Shown here piece after piece: positions 14,808 through 29,848 of a stretch of DNA of 53,590 nt. Under the pieces are notes generated by a model. It ran no database searches. It was given only the letters and a program-made list of their open reading frames with translations, and was not told the origin of the DNA. The translations under genes were made by a program, and so were the position numbers. Positions within the stretch are counted from its first letter, which is position 1. Each line of letters begins with the position of its first letter. The stretch comes from a bacterium (GTDB lineage: Bacteria > BMS3Abin14), in contig JARGFV010000002.1 of assembly GCA_029210545.1 (NCBI GenBank), forward strand, positions 1-53,590, written 5' to 3'.

Positions 14808-15251
14808 ATGGCTGACAGAGTGGTTATCGTAAGGGAGGGCGTGCACCTTCTCAGCCTTCCGTTCACTTCCATCGATGAAATTCTCGGAACCGAAAGGATC
14901 GTTTCTCTTGCGGACCTGCCTGAAGACGCTGCCCCGGAGGGTGCCGACGATCCCCATTGGGTTCATACCAGGGGGGAGTGGCTGCCCCTGGCCATGTTCC
15001 TGCCCGATTCCGTAGTGACGGACCGCTCCCAGATCGTTATTGTCCGCTGGGGTCAGACAGGGCGTGCCTACATCGTCGACCAGGTCCTGGGGATCGAGTC
15101 CCTGGGCAGGATGATCCAGTTCCCCGAGGCGGCGATTCCTTTCACGGATATTCCCTTCGCGGGTGTACGGCTGTGGAAGGGCCGCCCCGTATTGGAACTT
15201 GACCTTTCACGTCTGATTTCATTAGATTTAGGGGGCCGTCAGGATGGGTGA
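14808..15251 (+). CDS. CheW-like domain protein (divergent)
   Basis: LPFTSIDEIL, GEWLPLAM, AYIVDQVLGI, PVLELDLSRL resemble CheW strands. Confidence 0.65.
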   Translation: MADRVVIVREGVHLLSLPFTSIDEILGTERIVSLADLPEDAAPEGADDPHWVHTRGEWLPLAMFLPDSVVTDRSQIVIVRWGQTGRAYIVDQVLGIESLGRMIQFPEAAIPFTDIPFAGVRLWKGRPVLELDLSRLISLDLGGRQDG

Positions 15252-15663
15252 TACGAGGATGATCACCTTCGCCCTCGGGAGACATCGCTTTGCCATCCCC
15301 ATCGAGGATATCAGGGAGGTCATCAACATCGAATCAGTGGTACCGGTCCCTGGTGGAAGGAGGCCCCTGGAAGGGATCATTCCTTACCGGGATAACGCGG
15401 TCCTCCCGGTTTTTTCACTCCTCGATCTCCTGGGTCACGAACATGAAGAGAAGAGCAATCTGGTGGTCGTGACCGGCACCCGGGACACCCCTGTCGGTTT
15501 CAGGGTGAGACAGATGGGGGGCGTGATGGCCAGCGTGGCCGAGGACAAGATCGTGGCCTATGACGGGGCTCTTGGTGGCGGTGGGAAAGCTGTGTCCGGC
15601 GTCCTGATAAAGCCGGGAGGGGAACATATACTCCTCAGCATGAAACACGTGTTCGCATTCTGA
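15244..15663 (+). CDS. CheW-like domain protein
   Basis: MITFALGRHRFAIPIEDIREVI, VPVPG...LEGIIPYRDNAVLPVFSL. Confidence 0.78.
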   Translation: MGDTRMITFALGRHRFAIPIEDIREVINIESVVPVPGGRRPLEGIIPYRDNAVLPVFSLLDLLGHEHEEKSNLVVVTGTRDTPVGFRVRQMGGVMASVAEDKIVAYDGALGGGGKAVSGVLIKPGGEHILLSMKHVFAF

Positions 15664-15978
15664 ATCCAGGCGCTTTCAAGGGTCCGGGAACCTGATCGGG
15701 AACCCCTGGCAGGCTTATGGATATCGTTTACAGGAAGGTGTTATACCCCCGTGATGAAAAACTGGTGACATTCAGGCTGTTAAAACCCGAAACCATTGTC
15801 CGTATTGATTTTTTGGGTTTTTCTTCACCCGGCACCGCGGAGCTTGACGTGTCATGGCGATCCCGGGACGTCCGACAAACTTCACCGGCTGCGTGTCAAG
15901 GCTTGAGACACGCTTCTGGTGGCCGAACCGTTCACCCCCGACGGGTCGCGATTTCCGGCATGGGGGGGAGGGAAAAAG

Positions 15979-17445
15979 ATGAAAAGGATCCTTGTTGCTG
16001 ACGACAGTGTCACCATCCAGAAGGTGATCGCCCTTACCTTTGCCGATGAACCGTTCGAGGTCCAGTCTGTTGGAACAGGGGCGGAAGCCCTGGAGTTCAT
16101 GAAGAACTATACCCCTGACATTGTGCTGGCTGACGTGATCATGCCCCAGATGAACGGATATGAACTGTGCCGTGCCGTAAAACAGCAGGAAGAAACATCC
16201 CGGATTCCCGTACTGCTCCTCGCAGGCACTTTCGAGGCTTTCGACGAGGGGGAGGCCAGGTCTGTCGGCGCCGACGATTTCATCACGAAACCTTTTGAAT
16301 CCGGTGAACTCATCGAAAAGGTCAAGGGGCTCCTCGGGCAAGGCCCGGCACCGGCGGCAGCGCCTCCCCGGGCGGAAACACCGGCGGTTGCCGCTGTCCC
16401 GACGCCTGCTCCACCAGCTTCTCCGGCAGTTGAAGCGGCTCCGCCCCGACCAGCCGTGGTGCCGGCGGCCCATGCCGCCGCCGCGCCGCCTCAGAATGCC
16501 GGGGGGCCCGAGCCGGACATCTGGGATATCCTGAGCGATGCGGGTGACGAGATCAAACCGCCGACAGCTGGTCCGCCGGCGGGGGGCAGCGCCGCCGGTT
16601 TCCCCGGGTTCGGTCCCATTGAGGATACCGGCGTCGTGGACGTCGGTAGTTTTGACGTCGGGTTGGACAGGCCCGAGTCGGCCCCGCCGGTCTCCGTTCC
16701 GGCACCTCCCATCCCGGAAGCTGCTCCGGCCGCAGTTACCGGAACTGTCCAGCCGCCTGGCCAGGCACCCGCTCCCCAGGAGACTGTTCCCCAGGAGCCT
16801 GTTCCCGTAGTCGTGGAACCGCCGTCCATGACCGGAGTCGAGGAAACGTTGGAAAGGAGCCGTGTCGAGGACAGGGAAAAAGATTTCTTCGGGTTCAGGA
16901 ACGGCGCGGTGGAAGAGGTCTCCGGCGTGGATATCATGTCTGAAGCGATCGAAGAGGTCACCTTCGACATGGATGATGTCCCTGCAGCAGGCCCGGGAGC
17001 CTCGCCCGAAGCCTCCTTTGTCGTACCGGAACCGGCCTTCAACGAACCCCGGGCCGCAGGTGAGACCGAGGCACCCTCCACTCCGCCCGCACCGGCTCCG
17101 GGACCTCCGGAACCTGTTTCCATTGCCGCGGAGCCGTCATTCGAGCCCGCCCCTGAACCACCTTCGGTACCCGCTGCGGACCTGCGGGTGATGGACAGCC
17201 CTGAACCGGCTCCGGCGGCGGGACCCACGGTTCCCGTGATGCCCGAACCAGCGCCGGTTCCGTTACCTGAGCCCCCATTGGAGCTTGCGGCACCCGAGGC
17301 TGCCGAGGGAACCGGAGCTGTTGACGACGCCATGATCAGGAAGATCATTGAAGAGAAGGTCGAAAGGATCGCCTGGGAAGTTGTCCCCGAGATGGCCGAG
17401 GTGTTCATCAGGGAGGCCCTGGAGAAGATCAAGGGCGGATCCTGA
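15979..17445 (+). CDS. romR: RomR-like response regulator (REC, Pro/Glu-rich linker, RomR C-terminal helix)
   Basis: ILVADDSVTIQKVI...LADVIMP...LLAGTFEAFDE...KPFES and C-terminal IAWEVVPEMAEVFIREALEKI match the Myxococcus RomR pattern; directly upstream of valS. Confidence 0.85.
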   Translation: MKRILVADDSVTIQKVIALTFADEPFEVQSVGTGAEALEFMKNYTPDIVLADVIMPQMNGYELCRAVKQQEETSRIPVLLLAGTFEAFDEGEARSVGADDFITKPFESGELIEKVKGLLGQGPAPAAAPPRAETPAVAAVPTPAPPASPAVEAAPPRPAVVPAAHAAAAPPQNAGGPEPDIWDILSDAGDEIKPPTAGPPAGGSAAGFPGFGPIEDTGVVDVGSFDVGLDRPESAPPVSVPAPPIPEAAPAAVTGTVQPPGQAPAPQETVPQEPVPVVVEPPSMTGVEETLERSRVEDREKDFFGFRNGAVEEVSGVDIMSEAIEEVTFDMDDVPAAGPGASPEASFVVPEPAFNEPRAAGETEAPSTPPAPAPGPPEPVSIAAEPSFEPAPEPPSVPAADLRVMDSPEPAPAAGPTVPVMPEPAPVPLPEPPLELAAPEAAEGTGAVDDAMIRKIIEEKVERIAWEVVPEMAEVFIREALEKIKGGS

Positions 17446-23960: not shown

Positions 23961-24213
23961 TCCTGAGCCTGCCTGCCGCAGGCAGGGGGGAACCATACCC
24001 GAAATCCGGCCCAAACCAATCTCGGATTTCGGGTTTCCACTTTCACCTTGTCCCTTTATTTTTCCGATGGTAACCTTGCTCTGTTTATTTGGTTGATCTT
24101 TCATATCTCATCTCACCCGGCGGGGATTCATACTGACACCGTGGCCGCCTTGGAAGGTGTCATGGGGTGACCCTTACCGAGGCTGTACCAGTCGCTACTT
24201 AAGGAGCCATTGT

Positions 24214-26298
24214 ATGAAGAAGATTGAGACCGACAACATCCGCAACATCGCCATCATCGCCCACGGCGGTGCGGGCAAGACTTCTCTTTGTGAAGCGGTC
24301 ATGTTCAACGCTGGAGCAGTCACCCGCCTCGGGAAGGTCGAGGAGGGCAACACCGTAATGGATTTTCTGCCGGAGGAGATCTCCCGGCAGATCAGCGCAA
24401 GCTCGGCCACGGCTACCGTGGAGTGGAAAGATCACCAGATCAACATCGTGGACACCCCCGGCTACCAGGATTTCATCGCCGACTCCCTTTACGCGATCAG
24501 GGTCTGTGGCGGCGTTGTCGGGGTTGTCAGCGCGGTCTCCGGAGTTGAAGTCAACACCGAAAGACTCTGGAAAGAGGCCCGCCGCAAGAAGCTTGCGGGT
24601 GCCATTTTCATCAACAAGATGGACAGGGAAAGAGCAGATTTTAACAGGGCGATCAAGGATGTGGAATCCAAGCTCAGGGCCAGGCCGGTCCTGTTGCAGC
24701 TGCCCATCGGCGCTGAGGCCGATTTCAAGGGGGTCGTGGATCTCATCTCCATGAAAGCGTGCCTTTACGAAATGGACGGGAGCGGGAAGTTCACCGAGCA
24801 CGATATCCCCGATGACCTTTCAGCCATGGCCGCCGAATACAGGGAAAAGCTGGTGGAGTTCGCTGCCGAGGGGGACGACACCCTGATGGAGAAGTACCTC
24901 GAGACCTTCGAACTCACCGACGAGGAGGTGTACCAGGGGTTGAGGGCGGGTGTCCTTGACGGGGACATCGTGCCCGTATTCTGCGGCTCCGCGACCCTCA
25001 ACATCGGCGTCCGCAAGCTCCTCGATGCCATGGTGGCGCTGATGCCCTCGCCTGTGGACGCAGGTGCTGTCCTCGGGGTCGACGGCAAGGGAGAGGAAGC
25101 CCGGAGGGAACCAAAAGAGAGCGAGCCTTTCGCCGCCTTCGTATACAAGACTCTGGCCGACCCTTACGCCGGCAAGCTCACATTGTTCAAGGTGGTTTCC
25201 GGAGCCCTGAAATCGGACAGCGGTTTTTTCAATACCACCCGTGACGCCAAGGAACGCTTCGGCAACCTGTTCCTGCTCCAGGGCAAGAAACAGATCAACG
25301 TTCCGGAGGTGGTGGCCGGTCAGTTGGCAGGTGTCGCCAAGCTGAAGGAGACCCGCACCGGTGACACCCTGTGCGCCGATGGAAAACCGTTCATCCTGCC
25401 GGGTGTGGACCTCCCCACTCCGGCTCTGTCCTATGCCATCAAGCCAAAGTCCAAGGGGGACGAGGAGAAGGTGAGCCAGTCACTGGCCAGGCTCCTGGAC
25501 GAGGATCCCTCCCTCCACGTTCAACGGGACGACGCCACCAGGGAAAACATTCTTTCCGGGATGGGTCAGCAGCACATCGAGGTCACCGTGGAACGCCTCA
25601 AGACCAAGTTCGGCGTTGAGGTGGAGATGGCCGTGCCCAAAGTCCCCTACAAGGAGACGATCAAGGGCAAGACCCAGCTTCAGAGCCGGTACAAGAAACA
25701 GACCGGCGGGCGGGGGCAGTTCGGGGACGTGTGGCTGGAGATCGAACCACAGCCCAGGGGCGGAGATTTCCAGTTCGTCGACAAGATCGTTGGCGGCGCC
25801 ATCCCCAGGAATTACATCCCTGCGGTGGAAAAGGGAATCCGGGAGGCCCTGGTAGAAGGCGTTCTGGCCGGGTATCCGGTCACCGATGTGAAAGTGACCC
25901 TCTACGATGGGTCCTATCACACGGTTGACTCATCGGAGATGGCGTTCAAGATCGCCGCGTCCATGGGTTTCAAAAAAGGGTTCCTGCAGTGTAAACCTGT
26001 TCTCCTCGAACCCATCGTCAACCTTGACATCACGGTCCCCGACGAATTCATGGGGGCTGTCATCGGAGATCTCAATTCGAGGAGGGGCAAGGTTCTGGGC
26101 ATGGACCCTCAGAGTGATGTCCAGATCGTCAAGGCCCAGGTCGCCATGGCGGAGATCCTGAGTTATGCCCCTGACCTGAGATCCATGACCGAAGGCAGGG
26201 CATCTTTTGCCGTCTCTTTCTCCCATTACGAGGAAGTGCCAGCGCACCTGGCCGAGAAGGTTATCGCGGAGTCTCAGAAAGGGAAGGAGAAGGAATAA
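24214..26298 (+). CDS. Elongation factor G paralogue (EF-G2-type)
   Basis: G1 AHGGAGKTS, G3 DTPGYQDF, G4 NKMD, KKQTGGRGQFG, DGSYHTVDSS, LLEPI; not in a str operon; ATG 24214 with AAGGAG. Confidence 0.9.
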   Translation: MKKIETDNIRNIAIIAHGGAGKTSLCEAVMFNAGAVTRLGKVEEGNTVMDFLPEEISRQISASSATATVEWKDHQINIVDTPGYQDFIADSLYAIRVCGGVVGVVSAVSGVEVNTERLWKEARRKKLAGAIFINKMDRERADFNRAIKDVESKLRARPVLLQLPIGAEADFKGVVDLISMKACLYEMDGSGKFTEHDIPDDLSAMAAEYREKLVEFAAEGDDTLMEKYLETFELTDEEVYQGLRAGVLDGDIVPVFCGSATLNIGVRKLLDAMVALMPSPVDAGAVLGVDGKGEEARREPKESEPFAAFVYKTLADPYAGKLTLFKVVSGALKSDSGFFNTTRDAKERFGNLFLLQGKKQINVPEVVAGQLAGVAKLKETRTGDTLCADGKPFILPGVDLPTPALSYAIKPKSKGDEEKVSQSLARLLDEDPSLHVQRDDATRENILSGMGQQHIEVTVERLKTKFGVEVEMAVPKVPYKETIKGKTQLQSRYKKQTGGRGQFGDVWLEIEPQPRGGDFQFVDKIVGGAIPRNYIPAVEKGIREALVEGVLAGYPVTDVKVTLYDGSYHTVDSSEMAFKIAASMGFKKGFLQCKPVLLEPIVNLDITVPDEFMGAVIGDLNSRRGKVLGMDPQSDVQIVKAQVAMAEILSYAPDLRSMTEGRASFAVSFSHYEEVPAHLAEKVIAESQKGKEKE

Positions 26299-26301
26299 AG
26301 T

Positions 26302-27570
26302 ATGGGCGACGATTTTGATCTTTTTCCAAAACGGGAAAACCTGGACCCATTTTCCTTTGGAACCCGGGAGAAAAAGAGCGAAGCCGAGCTGAAAGAGAAG
26401 GGGACCGAGGATCTGTTCGGGCAGGAAGATCAACCGCCCGCCCCGCCCCCCCTTCCTGATCTGCCTCTCGATCTGCCTGGCGCGGAGCCTGCGGCTGTTG
26501 GAGAGGGTCTGCCGTCTCTGGAGCCCACCATACCGGAACCCCCACCTCTGCCGCCACCGCCGCCCCCGCCATCCGGACCCGTTGCCTCTCCATCGGACTT
26601 CTCCAGCGACGGTCCCATCTCGGAGGAAAAAACCTTCGACGAACCCGTTTTCGACGACAGTAAGCCGACACCCGCTCCAGGGAAGAAATCAGGCAGGAAA
26701 ACGCCGTCCCCATTTGTTTTCGTGGGCGGCGCCCTCCTCATCATCATCGGGTTGCTCTTCGGTGCCTACACCTACCTCATGAAAGGCAGGGCGCCTGAAC
26801 CCCGTGCGGCCCTCCCACCGGTGAGCGTATCTGTACCCGTACCAAGTCCCGCACCGGTTCCAGCATCCGGACCCGAGACCCAAACGGAACCGGCCAAGCC
26901 TTCCCCTCCGGAAAGCGCTGTGAAGTCCGGGACTCCTCCATCTCCCACACCCGCTCCCGCACCGGTTCCGGAACCCGCGAAGCCTGAACCGCCAGAATCC
27001 GAACCGGTGAAACCTGAGCCGGGTACCCCTCCGGAACCGGCCAGGACAGCAGCGGCACAACCTTCGCCACCTCGGGTTCCCCAGCCCGGCGCAGCCGCGG
27101 TTTCTCCAGGTGACGTCCAGTATTCCATCCAGGTCGGGGCCTTCATCCTCCAGTCCAGCGTGCTGGAACTGGAAAATAAGCTCAGATCCCTCGGGCACGA
27201 GCCGTTCCGGAAGGAAGGGTCGACGACAGTCATGATGAACATGCTGACCGTGGGGCCGTTCGCTTCTGTGGCCGAGGCCCGGAGCGCCTTGTTCCGGCTT
27301 AAGGCCGCCGACGTCGATTCAAACGTCAGGCGCAGGGCCGATGGGGGGGCCATCGTCAACGCGGGAAGCTATCTACTGGAGGAGAACGCCGACAGCGTCA
27401 TGAAAAAGATCCGCTCGCTGGGATACCCGGTTCGGATGTCCAAAAACGAAGCCAGACTTCCCATGACCTTCGTCAGGGTGGGAAGGTACCCGGATATGGA
27501 GGAGGCTTCGGTGCTGAAGGATGAACTCAGGGGGAAGGGGTTCGACGCCATCGTCGTCAAACTCCAGTAG
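26302..27570 (+). CDS. SPOR-domain membrane protein
   Basis: Acidic Pro-rich N-terminus, one TM (FVFVGGALLIIIGLLFGAYTYLM), Pro-rich linker, C-terminal SPOR half-repeats (YSIQVGAF, LTVGPF, VNAGSY, VRVGRY). Confidence 0.78.
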   Translation: MGDDFDLFPKRENLDPFSFGTREKKSEAELKEKGTEDLFGQEDQPPAPPPLPDLPLDLPGAEPAAVGEGLPSLEPTIPEPPPLPPPPPPPSGPVASPSDFSSDGPISEEKTFDEPVFDDSKPTPAPGKKSGRKTPSPFVFVGGALLIIIGLLFGAYTYLMKGRAPEPRAALPPVSVSVPVPSPAPVPASGPETQTEPAKPSPPESAVKSGTPPSPTPAPAPVPEPAKPEPPESEPVKPEPGTPPEPARTAAAQPSPPRVPQPGAAAVSPGDVQYSIQVGAFILQSSVLELENKLRSLGHEPFRKEGSTTVMMNMLTVGPFASVAEARSALFRLKAADVDSNVRRRADGGAIVNAGSYLLEENADSVMKKIRSLGYPVRMSKNEARLPMTFVRVGRYPDMEEASVLKDELRGKGFDAIVVKLQ

Positions 27571-27742: not shown

Positions 27743-28495
27743 ATGTCCGGGGATTCCCAACCTGGTACCGGGATAGACGCACATCAGCTCAGCATCATCA
27801 TAAAGATGATGAGGGCCCAGGACCCGAAGACCAGGGACGTGGCTGTCCGTGCTCTCAAGGATGTGGATCCGGAGAAGATTACTGCTCTCCTGAGCGATCC
27901 TGAGCTCACTTCCGAAGCTGCTGCCTACTTTGCACGGCATGCCGGCGAACGACGGGACTGGATCGAGGCTCTTCTTGCCAACCCGTCATTGTCCGATGAA
28001 GACAGCGCTCTTCTGACATCTGCAGGGGCCTCCACTCCGGAGAAGAAGGTTTCGGCCCCAGGGGATGAGGCAGAGGAACACCTCAGTGTCGGCCAGCGGA
28101 TCGCCCGGATGAACGTGGGACAGAAGATCAAGGCTGCCATGCAGGGGGACAAGGAAGTACGCACCATCCTCATCAAGGACACCAACCGGGAAGTCTACAA
28201 GGCGGTCCTCAATAACCCCGGCCTGAAGGAGGCCGAGGTCGAGATGATGGCGAAGAATACCGGGACGAGCACCGAGATCCTCAGGGCAATTGCCGCCAAC
28301 CGGGAGTGGGTCGCCAACCGTAATATCATGCACGCCCTTGTCATGAACCCGAAGACACCGGTGAACCTGAGTATCAGGTTCCTGTCACGCCTGGGCCGGA
28401 AGGAGATCGAATTCATCGCCAAGAGCAGATCCATGCCCCAGGCCCTTCGAAACAACGCCAAAAGAATCGTGTCCGCCAAATCCAAGGGGAAATAA
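27743..28495 (+). CDS. Conserved hypothetical alpha-helical repeat protein
   Basis: 250 aa, GGAAGGTGA RBS, repeated (A/V)LxNP helical units; 3 nt from the MglA-like gene. Confidence 0.65.
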   Translation: MSGDSQPGTGIDAHQLSIIIKMMRAQDPKTRDVAVRALKDVDPEKITALLSDPELTSEAAAYFARHAGERRDWIEALLANPSLSDEDSALLTSAGASTPEKKVSAPGDEAEEHLSVGQRIARMNVGQKIKAAMQGDKEVRTILIKDTNREVYKAVLNNPGLKEAEVEMMAKNTGTSTEILRAIAANREWVANRNIMHALVMNPKTPVNLSIRFLSRLGRKEIEFIAKSRSMPQALRNNAKRIVSAKSKGK

Positions 28496-28498
28496 CCG

Positions 28499-29848
28499 AT
28501 GCCTGTGTTCAATTACGCCAAGAAGGAAGTGAACGTAAAGGTGGTCTACTATGGGCCCGGGCTGTCCGGCAAGACCACCAACCTTCAGCAGATCCACGAA
28601 GGGATCAAGCCGGAGTTCAAGGGCAAGCTCGTTTCCCTGGCGACCCAGACCGACCGGACCCTCTTCTTCGATTTCATGCCCCTGGAGTTGGGCTCCCTGG
28701 GCGGCTACAAGGTTCGGCTGCACATTTACACCGTGCCCGGGCAGGTTCATTACAACGCGACACGCAAACTGGTCCTCAAGGGCGTTGACGGGGTCGTTTT
28801 CATCGCCGACTCCCAGCGAGCCATGAGCGATGCCAACGTGGAAAGTTTCCTCAACCTGGAAAAAAACCTCCAGTCCTACGGGAAAGCCCTTGTGGACCTC
28901 CCCCACCTCATTCAGGCCAACAAGAGGGACCTGGATGATATTGCCTCTATGGACGAGATCGGGGCTCTTCTCAACCGCTATGGTGCTCCCCTGACCGAAG
29001 CGGTGGCTTCCGAGGGAAAGGGGGCCCTCGAGACCCTCACGGAGATCGTCCGCATGGTGATGAGAGGGCTGAGGGATCAGTTCAGACGTCAAATTAATGA
29101 AAGGGAAGATGAAGCCTCAGTCACAGACGCAGTCTCAGCTCCAGAACCCCCACCTGCGCCTGCTCCGGTGGCCGAACCGATGGTAGTCTCAGACACAGTC
29201 TCAGACCCGGTGCCGGAACCACCCCGCCCTGATCCCAGTCGAGGGGAACCGGAAACTGCTGTCACTGATAGGGCGCAGCCCATTCGAGTGAATATCCCTG
29301 TTGAGGGGATCGGGACGCTGGAGCTTTCCATTATGGTCACCGCGAAGATAGTGGAAGAGGACAGGAGTCTCGAAGTGCAGGTTGAAAGCGCTGCCATCGA
29401 GGGCGCGGAGCCTGAAATAGACACAGACACGGACACAGACACAGTGCTGGAACCGGTATTCACTTCCGGCGAGGCTGTAGTGGACAAACCAGAGCCGGAA
29501 CCTGAGACCGAGACCGTGACTGAGACTGAGACTCCCCCCCCGCTGGGGGAAGAGAGTGCTGAACCCCTCGGGGCTCCCCTGGATGGCCAGGAAATGGATC
29601 CTGAGGTCGAACCACTGGATGTTCCGGAAGCGCCCCTGCCGGAAGTGTTCCTCGACGACGAGAAGATCCTCACCGACGATGATGCCGCGCCTGCAGATAC
29701 AATAGCCACGGACTCGACGGAACACCCGCTTGACCGGTACGACCCCACGGCCAAACCCATCGCTCTCTTTGCAGAGAGCGGGGACGAACCGGCCCCGCAG
29801 GAGCCGGCTCCGAAGAAGAAGGGGTTTTTCGGAAGGTTCAAAAAATAG
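28499..29848 (+). CDS. MglA-family small GTPase with ~250-aa acidic C-terminal extension
   Basis: KVVYYGPGLSGKTTNL, TDRTLFFDF, YTVPGQVHY, LKGVDGVVFIADSQ, NKRDL; ends in KKKGFFGRFKK. Confidence 0.88.
   Translation: MPVFNYAKKEVNVKVVYYGPGLSGKTTNLQQIHEGIKPEFKGKLVSLATQTDRTLFFDFMPLELGSLGGYKVRLHIYTVPGQVHYNATRKLVLKGVDGVVFIADSQRAMSDANVESFLNLEKNLQSYGKALVDLPHLIQANKRDLDDIASMDEIGALLNRYGAPLTEAVASEGKGALETLTEIVRMVMRGLRDQFRRQINEREDEASVTDAVSAPEPPPAPAPVAEPMVVSDTVSDPVPEPPRPDPSRGEPETAVTDRAQPIRVNIPVEGIGTLELSIMVTAKIVEEDRSLEVQVESAAIEGAEPEIDTDTDTDTVLEPVFTSGEAVVDKPEPEPETETVTETETPPPLGEESAEPLGAPLDGQEMDPEVEPLDVPEAPLPEVFLDDEKILTDDDAAPADTIATDSTEHPLDRYDPTAKPIALFAESGDEPAPQEPAPKKKGFFGRFKK

Follow-up and report, generated by a model that had tools for sequence, protein, structure and literature searches.

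Does a bacterial Ras-like GTPase depend on its partners to reach the membrane, or can it carry a tether of its own? The question is raised by mglA-L, a long-tailed mglA gene located at positions 28499 to 29848 of a 53,590-nucleotide (nt) stretch of bacterial DNA (positions 1 to 53,590 of contig JARGFV010000002.1, assembly GCA_029210545.1, lineage BMS3Abin14), referred to here as the window. The usual description of MglA, the model Ras-like polarity switch of bacteria, is that of a soluble protein with a single domain, brought to the poles by its partners. The mglA-L product adds to such a switch a long acidic tail with a basic and aromatic end, which a first-pass annotation of the sequence had taken for the anchor of a self-anchoring GTPase. 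With moderate confidence, the comparisons reported here favour as the most likely explanation a self-anchoring MglA switch whose terminus would be a membrane anchor. This part of the earlier proposal gains from the conservation of the terminal motif within a diverging tail and from the presence of the same peptide on a second MglA lineage, but the amphipathic helix that accompanied it is not established.

The GTPase core and acidic tail of mglA-L

The features of the gene are listed below, where conservation is the mean fraction of sequences carrying the majority residue among 30 long homologues that are 41–69% identical overall.

28499..29848, + strand: mglA-L, long-tailed MglA paralogue, ATG to TAG (stop 29846-29848), 449 amino acids (aa)
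28499..29083, + strand: MglA GTPase core, aa 1-195, from phmmer against the PDB, AlphaFold2 (AF2), Foldseek and motif invariance
28553-28576, + strand: core motif, P-loop
28655-28657, + strand: core motif, Arg finger R53
28730-28744, + strand: core motif, TVPGQ
28919-28930, + strand: core motif, NKRD
29084..29272, + strand: end of the last helix (to aa 208) and first Pro/Glu-rich disordered segment; AF2 helix H174-208, then predicted local distance difference test (pLDDT) about 50 or below; conservation 0.29
29273..29353, + strand: β-hairpin island, aa 259-285 (AQPIRVNIPVEGIGTLELSIMVTAKIV); AF2 strands E262-268 and E272-278, pLDDT ~80; conservation 0.52
29419..29444, + strand: hexamer DNA repeat AGACAC x4.3, encoding DTDTDTDT (Tandem Repeats Finder)
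29502..29533, + strand: hexamer DNA repeat CTGAGA x5.3, encoding ETETVTETET (Tandem Repeats Finder)
29528..29593, + strand: linear motif, aa 344-365 (..PPLGE..EPLGAPLDGQE); conservation 0.49; unique in the genome
29735..29770, + strand: linear motif, aa 413-424 (YDP[TS]..P[IL][DE][LF]); conservation 0.54; Y414 and P416 in at least 90% of sequences
29810..29845, + strand: terminal peptide PKKKGFFGRFKK, aa 438-449, proposed peripheral membrane anchor; conservation 0.64, the highest in the tail

The core of mglA-L is a bona fide group-1 MglA. Results of a phmmer search of the PDB show that residues 2-192 share ~60% identity with the solved MglA structures of T. thermophilus (3t12, E 5.5e-63) and M. 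xanthus (6h17, E 4.5e-62), and the core model (AF2 with 30 homologues, pLDDT ~85-95) has template modelling (TM) scores of 0.85-0.91 to MglA in Foldseek. The motifs GPGLSGKT (aa 19-26), R53 of DRTLFFDF, T78 and Q82 of TVPGQ and NKRD (aa 141-144) are all invariant in the 30-homologue alignment, which bears out the intact core, with its DRTLFFDF Arg and PGQ Gln, read in the first pass. Measured against the definition of the group-1 family (Wuichet and Sogaard-Andersen 2015, PMC4316618), mglA-L displays the Ras-like fold, the P-loop GxxxxGK[ST], the G4 motif [NT]KxD, R53, Q82 and a Thr at the position of Ras Asp57 (TxxGQ). Two usual attributes of the family are absent, namely the single domain of ~195 aa (here 449 aa, with a 254-aa extension) and the coupling to mglB.

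The extension agrees in length and composition with the ~250-aa Pro/Glu/Asp/Thr-rich tail described earlier (254 aa counted; P 15.4%, E 15.0%, D 9.8%, A 9.8%, V 8.7%, T 8.3%), and both hexamer repeats noted there (DTDTDT and ETETVTETET) are found at the DNA level. Up to the final 11 residues, whose own charge is +6, it has a net charge of -50. There is no Cys in the tail, by composition, nor in the whole protein, as read from the sequence, and hence no CAAX or lipidation box. Outside the hairpin, the tail is mostly predicted to be disordered (AF2 pLDDT about 50 or lower), and within this otherwise unalignable disorder (conservation 0.23-0.29) stand four conserved islands: the hairpin, the PLGE motif, the YDP motif and the terminus. 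The hairpin (AF2, aa 262-278) corresponds to the short β-rich island already noticed; G272 is invariant and E275 nearly so, and the conservation of the whole island (0.52) compares with 0.25 in the flanking disorder. When its profile was compared with the tails of other long MglAs, only weak matches to alternating β-strand segments were obtained (E at least 0.004), and no cross-lineage homology was demonstrated in this comparison.

The terminal peptide is the best conserved of the four islands. The C-terminal KKKGFFGRFKK singled out in the first pass is present (net +6, three Phe), its GFFGRF forming a hydrophobic core between Lys/Arg clusters, with an alignment consensus of [KR]KKG[LF][LF]G[RL]FKKK. 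At the composition of the tail, the chance of at least six K/R in 11 residues is 8.6e-6 and that of at least three Phe 2.9e-4, and mglA-L is the sole open reading frame (ORF) of at least 80 aa in the 2.72-Mb genome with such a C-terminal motif. The motif is carried by 12 of the 13 orthologues in the phylum, the exception being genome G006, and, in a regular-expression count, by 44 of the 47 top metagenomic homologues; of the three that escape this count, P0046 and P0047 have a basic/hydrophobic variant at their end. The contrast between a conservation of 0.64 over the last 12 residues and 0.23-0.29 in the surrounding disorder, together with the retention of the motif among orthologues, indicates at the level of sequence that the peptide is under purifying selection.

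Recurrence of the terminal peptide among long-tailed MglAs

A survey of 80 diverse loci and of the top database homologues sorts MglAs into five classes, distinguished by length, by the presence of a basic terminus and by the gene directly upstream, which is either mglB or a gene for an α-solenoid protein, named here the partner, that precedes mglA-L in the window.

Class (a): canonical, ~194 aa; upstream mglB, essentially always; no basic terminus
Class (b): long, from Thermodesulfobacteriota, Myxococcota, Zymogenaceae and unclassified metagenome-assembled genomes; upstream partner; no basic terminus
Class (c): long, from Acidobacteriota and Nitrospirota; upstream neither mglB nor partner; no basic terminus
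Class (d): long, from the window's phylum; upstream partner; basic terminus
Class (e): long, Zixibacteria/Ignavibacteria type; upstream mglB; basic terminus

Among ~50 canonical 194-aa MglAs, mglB lies directly upstream in almost all and the partner in none; the few offsets are ORF-call artefacts, and one canonical locus (L069) shows no upstream mglB. A search of genome contigs with a profile of the class (d) alignment returned MglAs ~60% identical from other phyla, with no close members of the clade among the matches listed.

Class (e) MglAs (P0133-P0252) are 330-510 aa long and almost all have a MinD-like end, preceded by a conserved P.MA.S[LM][RK] motif. Among the Zixibacteria protein's 120 best homologues, the C terminus is KKRGFFKRLFGIK, KKKGFFLFRWLFGKK, KKKKFFLFRWFSRDND or similar in 118, and peptides of the KKRGFFKRLFGIK type are almost identical to the C terminus of E. 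coli MinD, KKGFLKRLFGG. Some of these tails are near-neutral (net -15 to +5) and keep the same terminal peptide. At two example loci (L055:6001-7326 and L019:6001-7428) the gene lies between mglB and a ~570-aa ORF that is PilB-like by eye only. In public databases, class (e) MglAs are annotated as 'GTPase', 'hypothetical' or 'SRP receptor subunit beta'.

In the tree of GTPase cores, class (e) (support 99) is sister to the canonical MglB-linked MglAs and class (d) (support 99) groups with class (b). The basic terminus needs two changes on this tree, and forcing (d) and (e) into one clade, a constraint group defined after inspection of the tree, costs 19.8 log-likelihood units (approximately unbiased test, p = 0.014). 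Because class (e) is phylogenetically separate and mglB-linked, the MinD-like peptide is best read from these sequences as having arisen at least twice among MglAs. Such independent recurrence is the strongest computational evidence that the peptide would serve a general, partner-independent function.

The presence of the motif in other long-tailed homologues had been set beforehand as an observation on which the first-pass proposal should stand or fall. It recurs in the orthologues, in about 45 metagenomic homologues and in a second clade, and this much upholds the proposal; it is absent from several long-tailed clades and is therefore lineage-specific, not general to long tails. The partner and the basic end are dissociated in both directions. 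The partner is found beside long MglAs without a basic end (L013-L015, L018, L025, L097 and L099), and in the Zixibacteria/Ignavibacteria clade, as checked at L019 and L055, both mglB-linked, the basic end is present where there is no partner; therefore, the peptide is not simply the partner's ligand. The partner was accordingly rejected as the receptor in the main reading on the strength of this double dissociation and of the charge of its conserved lobe, itself +8 to +16.

Separately, the long MglAs of Acidobacteriota (500-670 aa; L016, L027, L037, L041, L067, L070, L083 and L098), which have neither mglB nor the partner nearby, end in a β-rich module (..RRFKLSLRLRLDPVD), and the gene next to the one at L098 encodes a HEAT_2 protein.

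mglA-L is a paralogue of canonical MglA, a relation that went unnoticed in the first pass. A canonical mglB-mglA pair lies on contig C215 of the same genome (2.72 Mb, 97% complete), and its MglA is 57% identical to the mglA-L core. A search of this genome found no Roadblock/LC7 match on the mglA-L contig, all matches being confined to C215 and C220, so that the reported lack of an adjacent mglB holds. Among 16 species-level genomes of this small, uncultured phylum, representing one family and nine genera, the long copy is found in 13 and the canonical copy in 15; the missing copies belong to assemblies with a completeness of 71-91%. In the core tree, M. xanthus MglA falls together with the canonical copy of the phylum, whose long copy makes up a separate clade (support 99).

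In the single-contig genome G006 (C1:1360835 onward, locus L101) the long MglA runs into a 640-aa ORF with an unrelated C terminus; the YDP and KKKG motifs occur in no forward frame of the locus, and the NCBI product is labelled 'partial'. A frameshift, a pseudogene or an assembly error could account for this aberrant end. The 97%-complete genome yielded no true MinD in a search with TIGR01968, the best match scoring 57.6 bits against a cut-off of 212.9. The window also carries, 11 kb upstream of mglA-L (14808-17445), a pair of stand-alone CheW-like genes and, after them, a gene for a RomR-like REC protein that has a Pro/Ala-rich linker as well as a C-terminal helix, the RomR identity finding no confirmation in a curated family. 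This set of genes would fit a polarity module of the Myxococcus type serving the canonical MglA.

The α-solenoid partner and operon context

The genes upstream of mglA-L are arranged as follows.

24157..26298, + strand: EF-G paralogue (NF009381 subfamily, 964 bits), first gene of the cluster; stop 3 nt before the SPOR gene
26302..27570, + strand: SPOR-domain protein, 422 aa (Pfam SPOR, E 1e-17)
27743..28495, + strand: partner gene, 250-aa two-lobed α-solenoid protein with a basic C-lobe (+16); stop TAA 3 nt before the mglA-L ATG
28484..28490, + strand: Shine-Dalgarno-like AAGGGGA within the 3' end of the partner ORF, 8 nt ahead of the mglA-L ATG, read from the sequence

This layout indicates that mglA-L is translationally coupled to the partner gene, and the partner stop lies at most 15 nt upstream of mglA-L in all 11 phylum genomes with both genes on one contig as well as on six metagenomic contigs. 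Partner homologues also stand directly upstream of class (b) long MglAs (hhalign 99.7-99.8%; hmmsearch E 1e-40 to 1e-66), and no adjacent mglB was found at any of the partner-linked loci checked. This conserved upstream partner, which replaces mglB, was missed by the first-pass annotation.

The partner matches no Pfam or NCBIfam model, the best Pfam hits, LRV_2 (E 0.051) and HEAT_2 (E 0.18), falling below the cut-off. Its AF2 model shows two lobes of short stacked helices (pLDDT 83.7), an α-solenoid by fold class, and a Foldseek search found only a generic ARM/HEAT-like likeness (TM at most 0.25, best to designed ARM proteins). The conserved C-lobe has a net charge of +8 to +16 in all lineages, and the N-lobe is acidic (-6). 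The family comprises 4,453 clusters at 50% identity with E at most 1e-3, and 1,143 with E at most 1e-30. Among the matches listed (P0253-P0402), the partner domain is basic, Asn-rich and usually at or near the C-terminal end; in one 930-aa protein (P0283) it is fused to four PATAN (DUF4388) domains. PATAN has already been linked to MglA/MglB neighbourhoods (PMC4316618). A distant paralogue of the partner C-lobe (C175:16246-17148, - strand, ~300 aa), adjoining neither mglA gene, is present as one locus in most genomes of the phylum (E 1e-5 to 1e-13).

Since α-solenoid (TPR) proteins are known MglA effectors, among them Bd2492 of Bdellovibrio, the partner would by analogy be an effector or regulator specific to the long MglA subfamily, and its basic lobe may bind the acidic tail. 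SgmX is a further α-solenoid (TPR) effector of MglA (PMC7519303), and the MglA of Bdellovibrio has been treated in PMC3983030.

The order EF-G paralogue, SPOR, partner, MglA-L, ComEC, REC-GAF-GGDEF, HisS and PATAN-REC-GAF is kept in every member of the phylum checked. In other phyla, the EF-G paralogue is followed by an optional SPOR-like gene, the partner, the long MglA and GAF-GGDEF, with recurring overlaps of stop and start codons; the EF-G paralogue leads the partner/long-MglA cluster at L013, L014, L015, L018 and L099. The SPOR protein is probably bitopic, with a hydrophobic stretch at ~aa 148-170 by eye. Its N-terminal peptide MGDDFDLFPKRENLDPFSF (aa 1-20, 26302-26360), of the pattern M(G/P)DDFDLFP.R..LDPF.F and unique in the genome, is nearly invariant at all seven loci compared, in contrast to a divergent remainder of the cytoplasmic region; the peptide resembles a docking element, in a position comparable to that of the FtsN N-terminal peptide. 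A network of shared motifs, based on EPLGxPLDG and DDFDLF, was considered and dropped, each motif being unique to one protein in the genome-wide search (EPLGxPLDG to MglA-L and DDFDLF to the SPOR protein).

Competing explanations and relation to known systems

The terminal position, the basic cluster and the several aromatic or hydrophobic residues of MinD/FtsA/FtsY-type peptides are all found in mglA-L. The helical hydrophobic moment of KKKGFFGRFKK (0.43) is comparable to those of the E. coli MinD C terminus (0.41) and of the FtsY N terminus, KKRGFFSWLGF (0.42), and F443, F444 and F447 fall within a 100-degree arc of the helical wheel. The helical-wheel check proposed in the first pass thus gives a MinD-like moment, but one that 29% of same-composition shuffles equal or exceed; because the MinD peptide itself does no better (31%), the check does not discriminate.

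Several further observations weigh against membrane anchoring. AF2 gives no helix for the terminal peptide (pLDDT ~56), which contains two internal Gly, so that with the result of the shuffles the MinD-like amphipathic helix of the earlier proposal falls short of being established; the sequence pattern corresponds better to a short hydrophobic core flanked by polybasic clusters. There are three hydrophobic residues only, and the Wimley-White interfacial sum is +2.4 kcal/mol; anionic lipid would for this reason be needed for binding, and since binding of a monomer would be weak, avidity or a co-receptor is likely. The tail, at -50, could mask or sequester the peptide (+6), or its repulsion could keep the protein off the membrane. 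Finally, the basic terminus is missing from other long-tailed MglA clades, and the G006 orthologue ends differently, possibly through a frameshift.

Some of these points would be accommodated if the peptide were instead a protein-docking or autoinhibitory element that folds on its own -50 tail or docks on an acidic surface, for instance on the partner's N-lobe or on some component of the divisome or of pili; it would then be akin to the conserved C-terminal peptide that follows the FtsZ linker. The arrangement of GTPase, disordered linker and short conserved C-terminal peptide does parallel FtsZ; the charges of the tail (-50) and of the partner N-lobe (-6) are opposite to that of the peptide (+6); the missing AF2 helix and an amphipathic order no better than that of shuffles are in keeping with docking; and the weak best matches of the partner in Foldseek (TM at most 0.25) are ARM-repeat proteins, which bind extended Lys/Arg peptides. 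However, across lineages the peptide and the partner each occur without the other, the near-neutral tails of the Zixibacteria type (-15 to +5) keep the peptide, which argues that an acidic tail is not a required ligand, and the consensus KKxGF[FL]..[RL]FG is closer to the validated lipid-binding peptides of MinD and FtsY than to a known protein-docking motif. Docking is therefore considered unlikely, though it is the strongest of the alternatives.

Much less probable still is a module that acts on translation, with nucleic acid or ribosomes as the target of the basic peptide. The EF-G paralogue, partner and MglA-L are kept in this order, with overlapping stop and start codons, in several phyla, and both the partner C-lobe and the terminal peptide are strongly basic. 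Yet no RNA-binding domain was detected, a -50 tail would repel nucleic acid, genes for SPOR (peptidoglycan-binding, its topology assumed), GGDEF and PATAN proteins share the neighbourhood, and the known biology of MglA is that of polarity and motility. Non-functional drift, by repeat expansion after a lost stop with the terminus arising by chance, would suit the slippage-type hexamer repeats and the poor conservation of most of the tail, but is effectively refuted by the four islands kept across nine genera and ~45 homologues, by the chance probability of the terminus (8.6e-6) and by the recurrence of the same terminus type in another clade.

A self-anchoring MglA would operate as a second, specialised MglA-type GTP switch carrying its own peripheral membrane tether. 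Its terminal peptide would bind anionic phospholipids through electrostatics and insertion of Phe/Leu residues, as do the C-terminal peptide of MinD and the N-terminal peptide of FtsY; with a single weak anchor, binding would probably be reversible and require avidity or the help of a partner. Repelled from the membrane, the acidic linker might serve as a spacer, and its three other conserved elements (the hairpin, PLGE..EPLGxPLDGQE and YDP[TS]) would be docking sites. At the mglA-L locus the switch would work with the coupled basic α-solenoid protein, as effector or regulator, and not with MglB, and probably also with the SPOR protein of the operon. Such a link to SPOR would locate the module on the cytoplasmic side of the membrane, whether at septa or at poles, and the cellular output can be guessed to be control of polarity, of the division site or of pili.

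A wider and distinctly doubtful extension holds that intrinsic, lipid-free anchors evolved at least twice among prokaryotic Ras-like GTPases, as a bacterial equivalent of the hypervariable-region strategy of eukaryotes, and that in this phylum, taken to lack MinD, the anchored paralogue is the hub of a hitherto unrecognised pole or division-site module. In such a module, the invariant cytoplasmic peptide of a septal SPOR protein (DDFDLFP..LDPF.F) and the acidic-aromatic YDPT..DLF tail motif might both recruit the basic partner, and the tethered GTPase might read or set positional identity and couple it to the EF-G paralogue and to PATAN and GGDEF signalling.

If membrane anchoring is correct, MglA homologues numbering in the thousands in environmental sequences, and belonging to two or more independent lineages, would possess their own membrane tether, and the mode of localization would vary and evolve among bacterial small GTPases as it does among those of eukaryotes. 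Throughout one MglA subfamily, an α-solenoid family of 4,453 clusters would stand in for the Roadblock GTPase-activating protein MglB. Two large sets of proteins now called 'hypothetical' or mis-named, for example under the JGI label 'signal recognition particle receptor subunit beta', would thereby receive a name and a working hypothesis. A full-text literature search, with most subscription-journal papers outside its coverage, found neither a membrane-anchored MglA nor the partner family described.

Comparison with the MglA of M. xanthus and T. thermophilus (PDB 6h17, 5ymx and 3t12) shows a common fold, P-loop, intrinsic Arg finger, Gln, Thr in place of Asp57 and NKxD motif. In contrast to these proteins, mglA-L has 449 rather than ~195 aa and a disordered, acidic tail that contains four conserved islands and finishes in a basic/aromatic terminus; it adjoins the α-solenoid partner instead of mglB and is the second MglA of its own genome. 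SofG of M. xanthus, too, is a member of the group-1 MglA family that coexists with a canonical MglA. It has terminal extensions, is not known to have a dedicated mglB and is reported to work with bactofilins; to our knowledge it has neither an acidic linker nor a membrane-type terminal peptide, and it is likened to mglA-L by description. SofG is assigned to group 1 with a role in the positioning of pilus ATPases (PMC4316618). The long MglAs of Zixibacteria and Ignavibacteria resemble mglA-L in the core, in the length and frequent acidity of the tail and in a C terminus that is basic and hydrophobic; they differ in forming a separate clade, in adjoining mglB and in lacking the partner gene as well as the hairpin and YDPT motifs.

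Outside the MglA family, transplantable lipid-binding peptides have been established for MinD, FtsA, MreB and FtsY (PMC6158289, which cites Szeto et al. 2003 for the C-terminal membrane-targeting sequence of MinD). MinD resembles the mglA-L peptide in its extreme C-terminal position, its KKGF[FL]..[RL]F-type sequence, its charge and its moment. Its body, in contrast, is a non-homologous ParA-type ATPase, in which the peptide directly follows the folded domain and binding is switched by ATP-driven dimerization; mglA-L has a 240-aa acidic linker before the peptide and no known dimerization signal. FtsY combines a lipid-binding helix, an acidic flexible A domain and a GTPase (PMC4602035). In E. 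coli FtsY, the basic/aromatic peptide, the long acidic flexible region and the GTPase follow one another in an order that is the mirror image of mglA-L, although FtsY is a SIMIBI-class signal recognition particle (SRP) GTPase and not a Ras-like one, with a reversed orientation. The organism's own FtsY, considered as an in-genome example of KKxGFF, is a short form without an A domain and was set aside as uninformative.

Among eukaryotic small GTPases, K-Ras4B and the lipid-free Rit, Rem and Rad have a Ras-fold switch, a flexible C-terminal region and a polybasic membrane-binding end. mglA-L shares with these polybasic-tail GTPases the Ras-fold switch and a flexible tail with a polybasic end; it differs from eukaryotic small GTPases in the lack of a Cys or CAAX box, in a linker that is acidic and ten times longer, and in its independent origin within MglA. 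The comparison suggests that bacteria, like eukaryotes, repeatedly gave small GTPases membrane tethers of their own.

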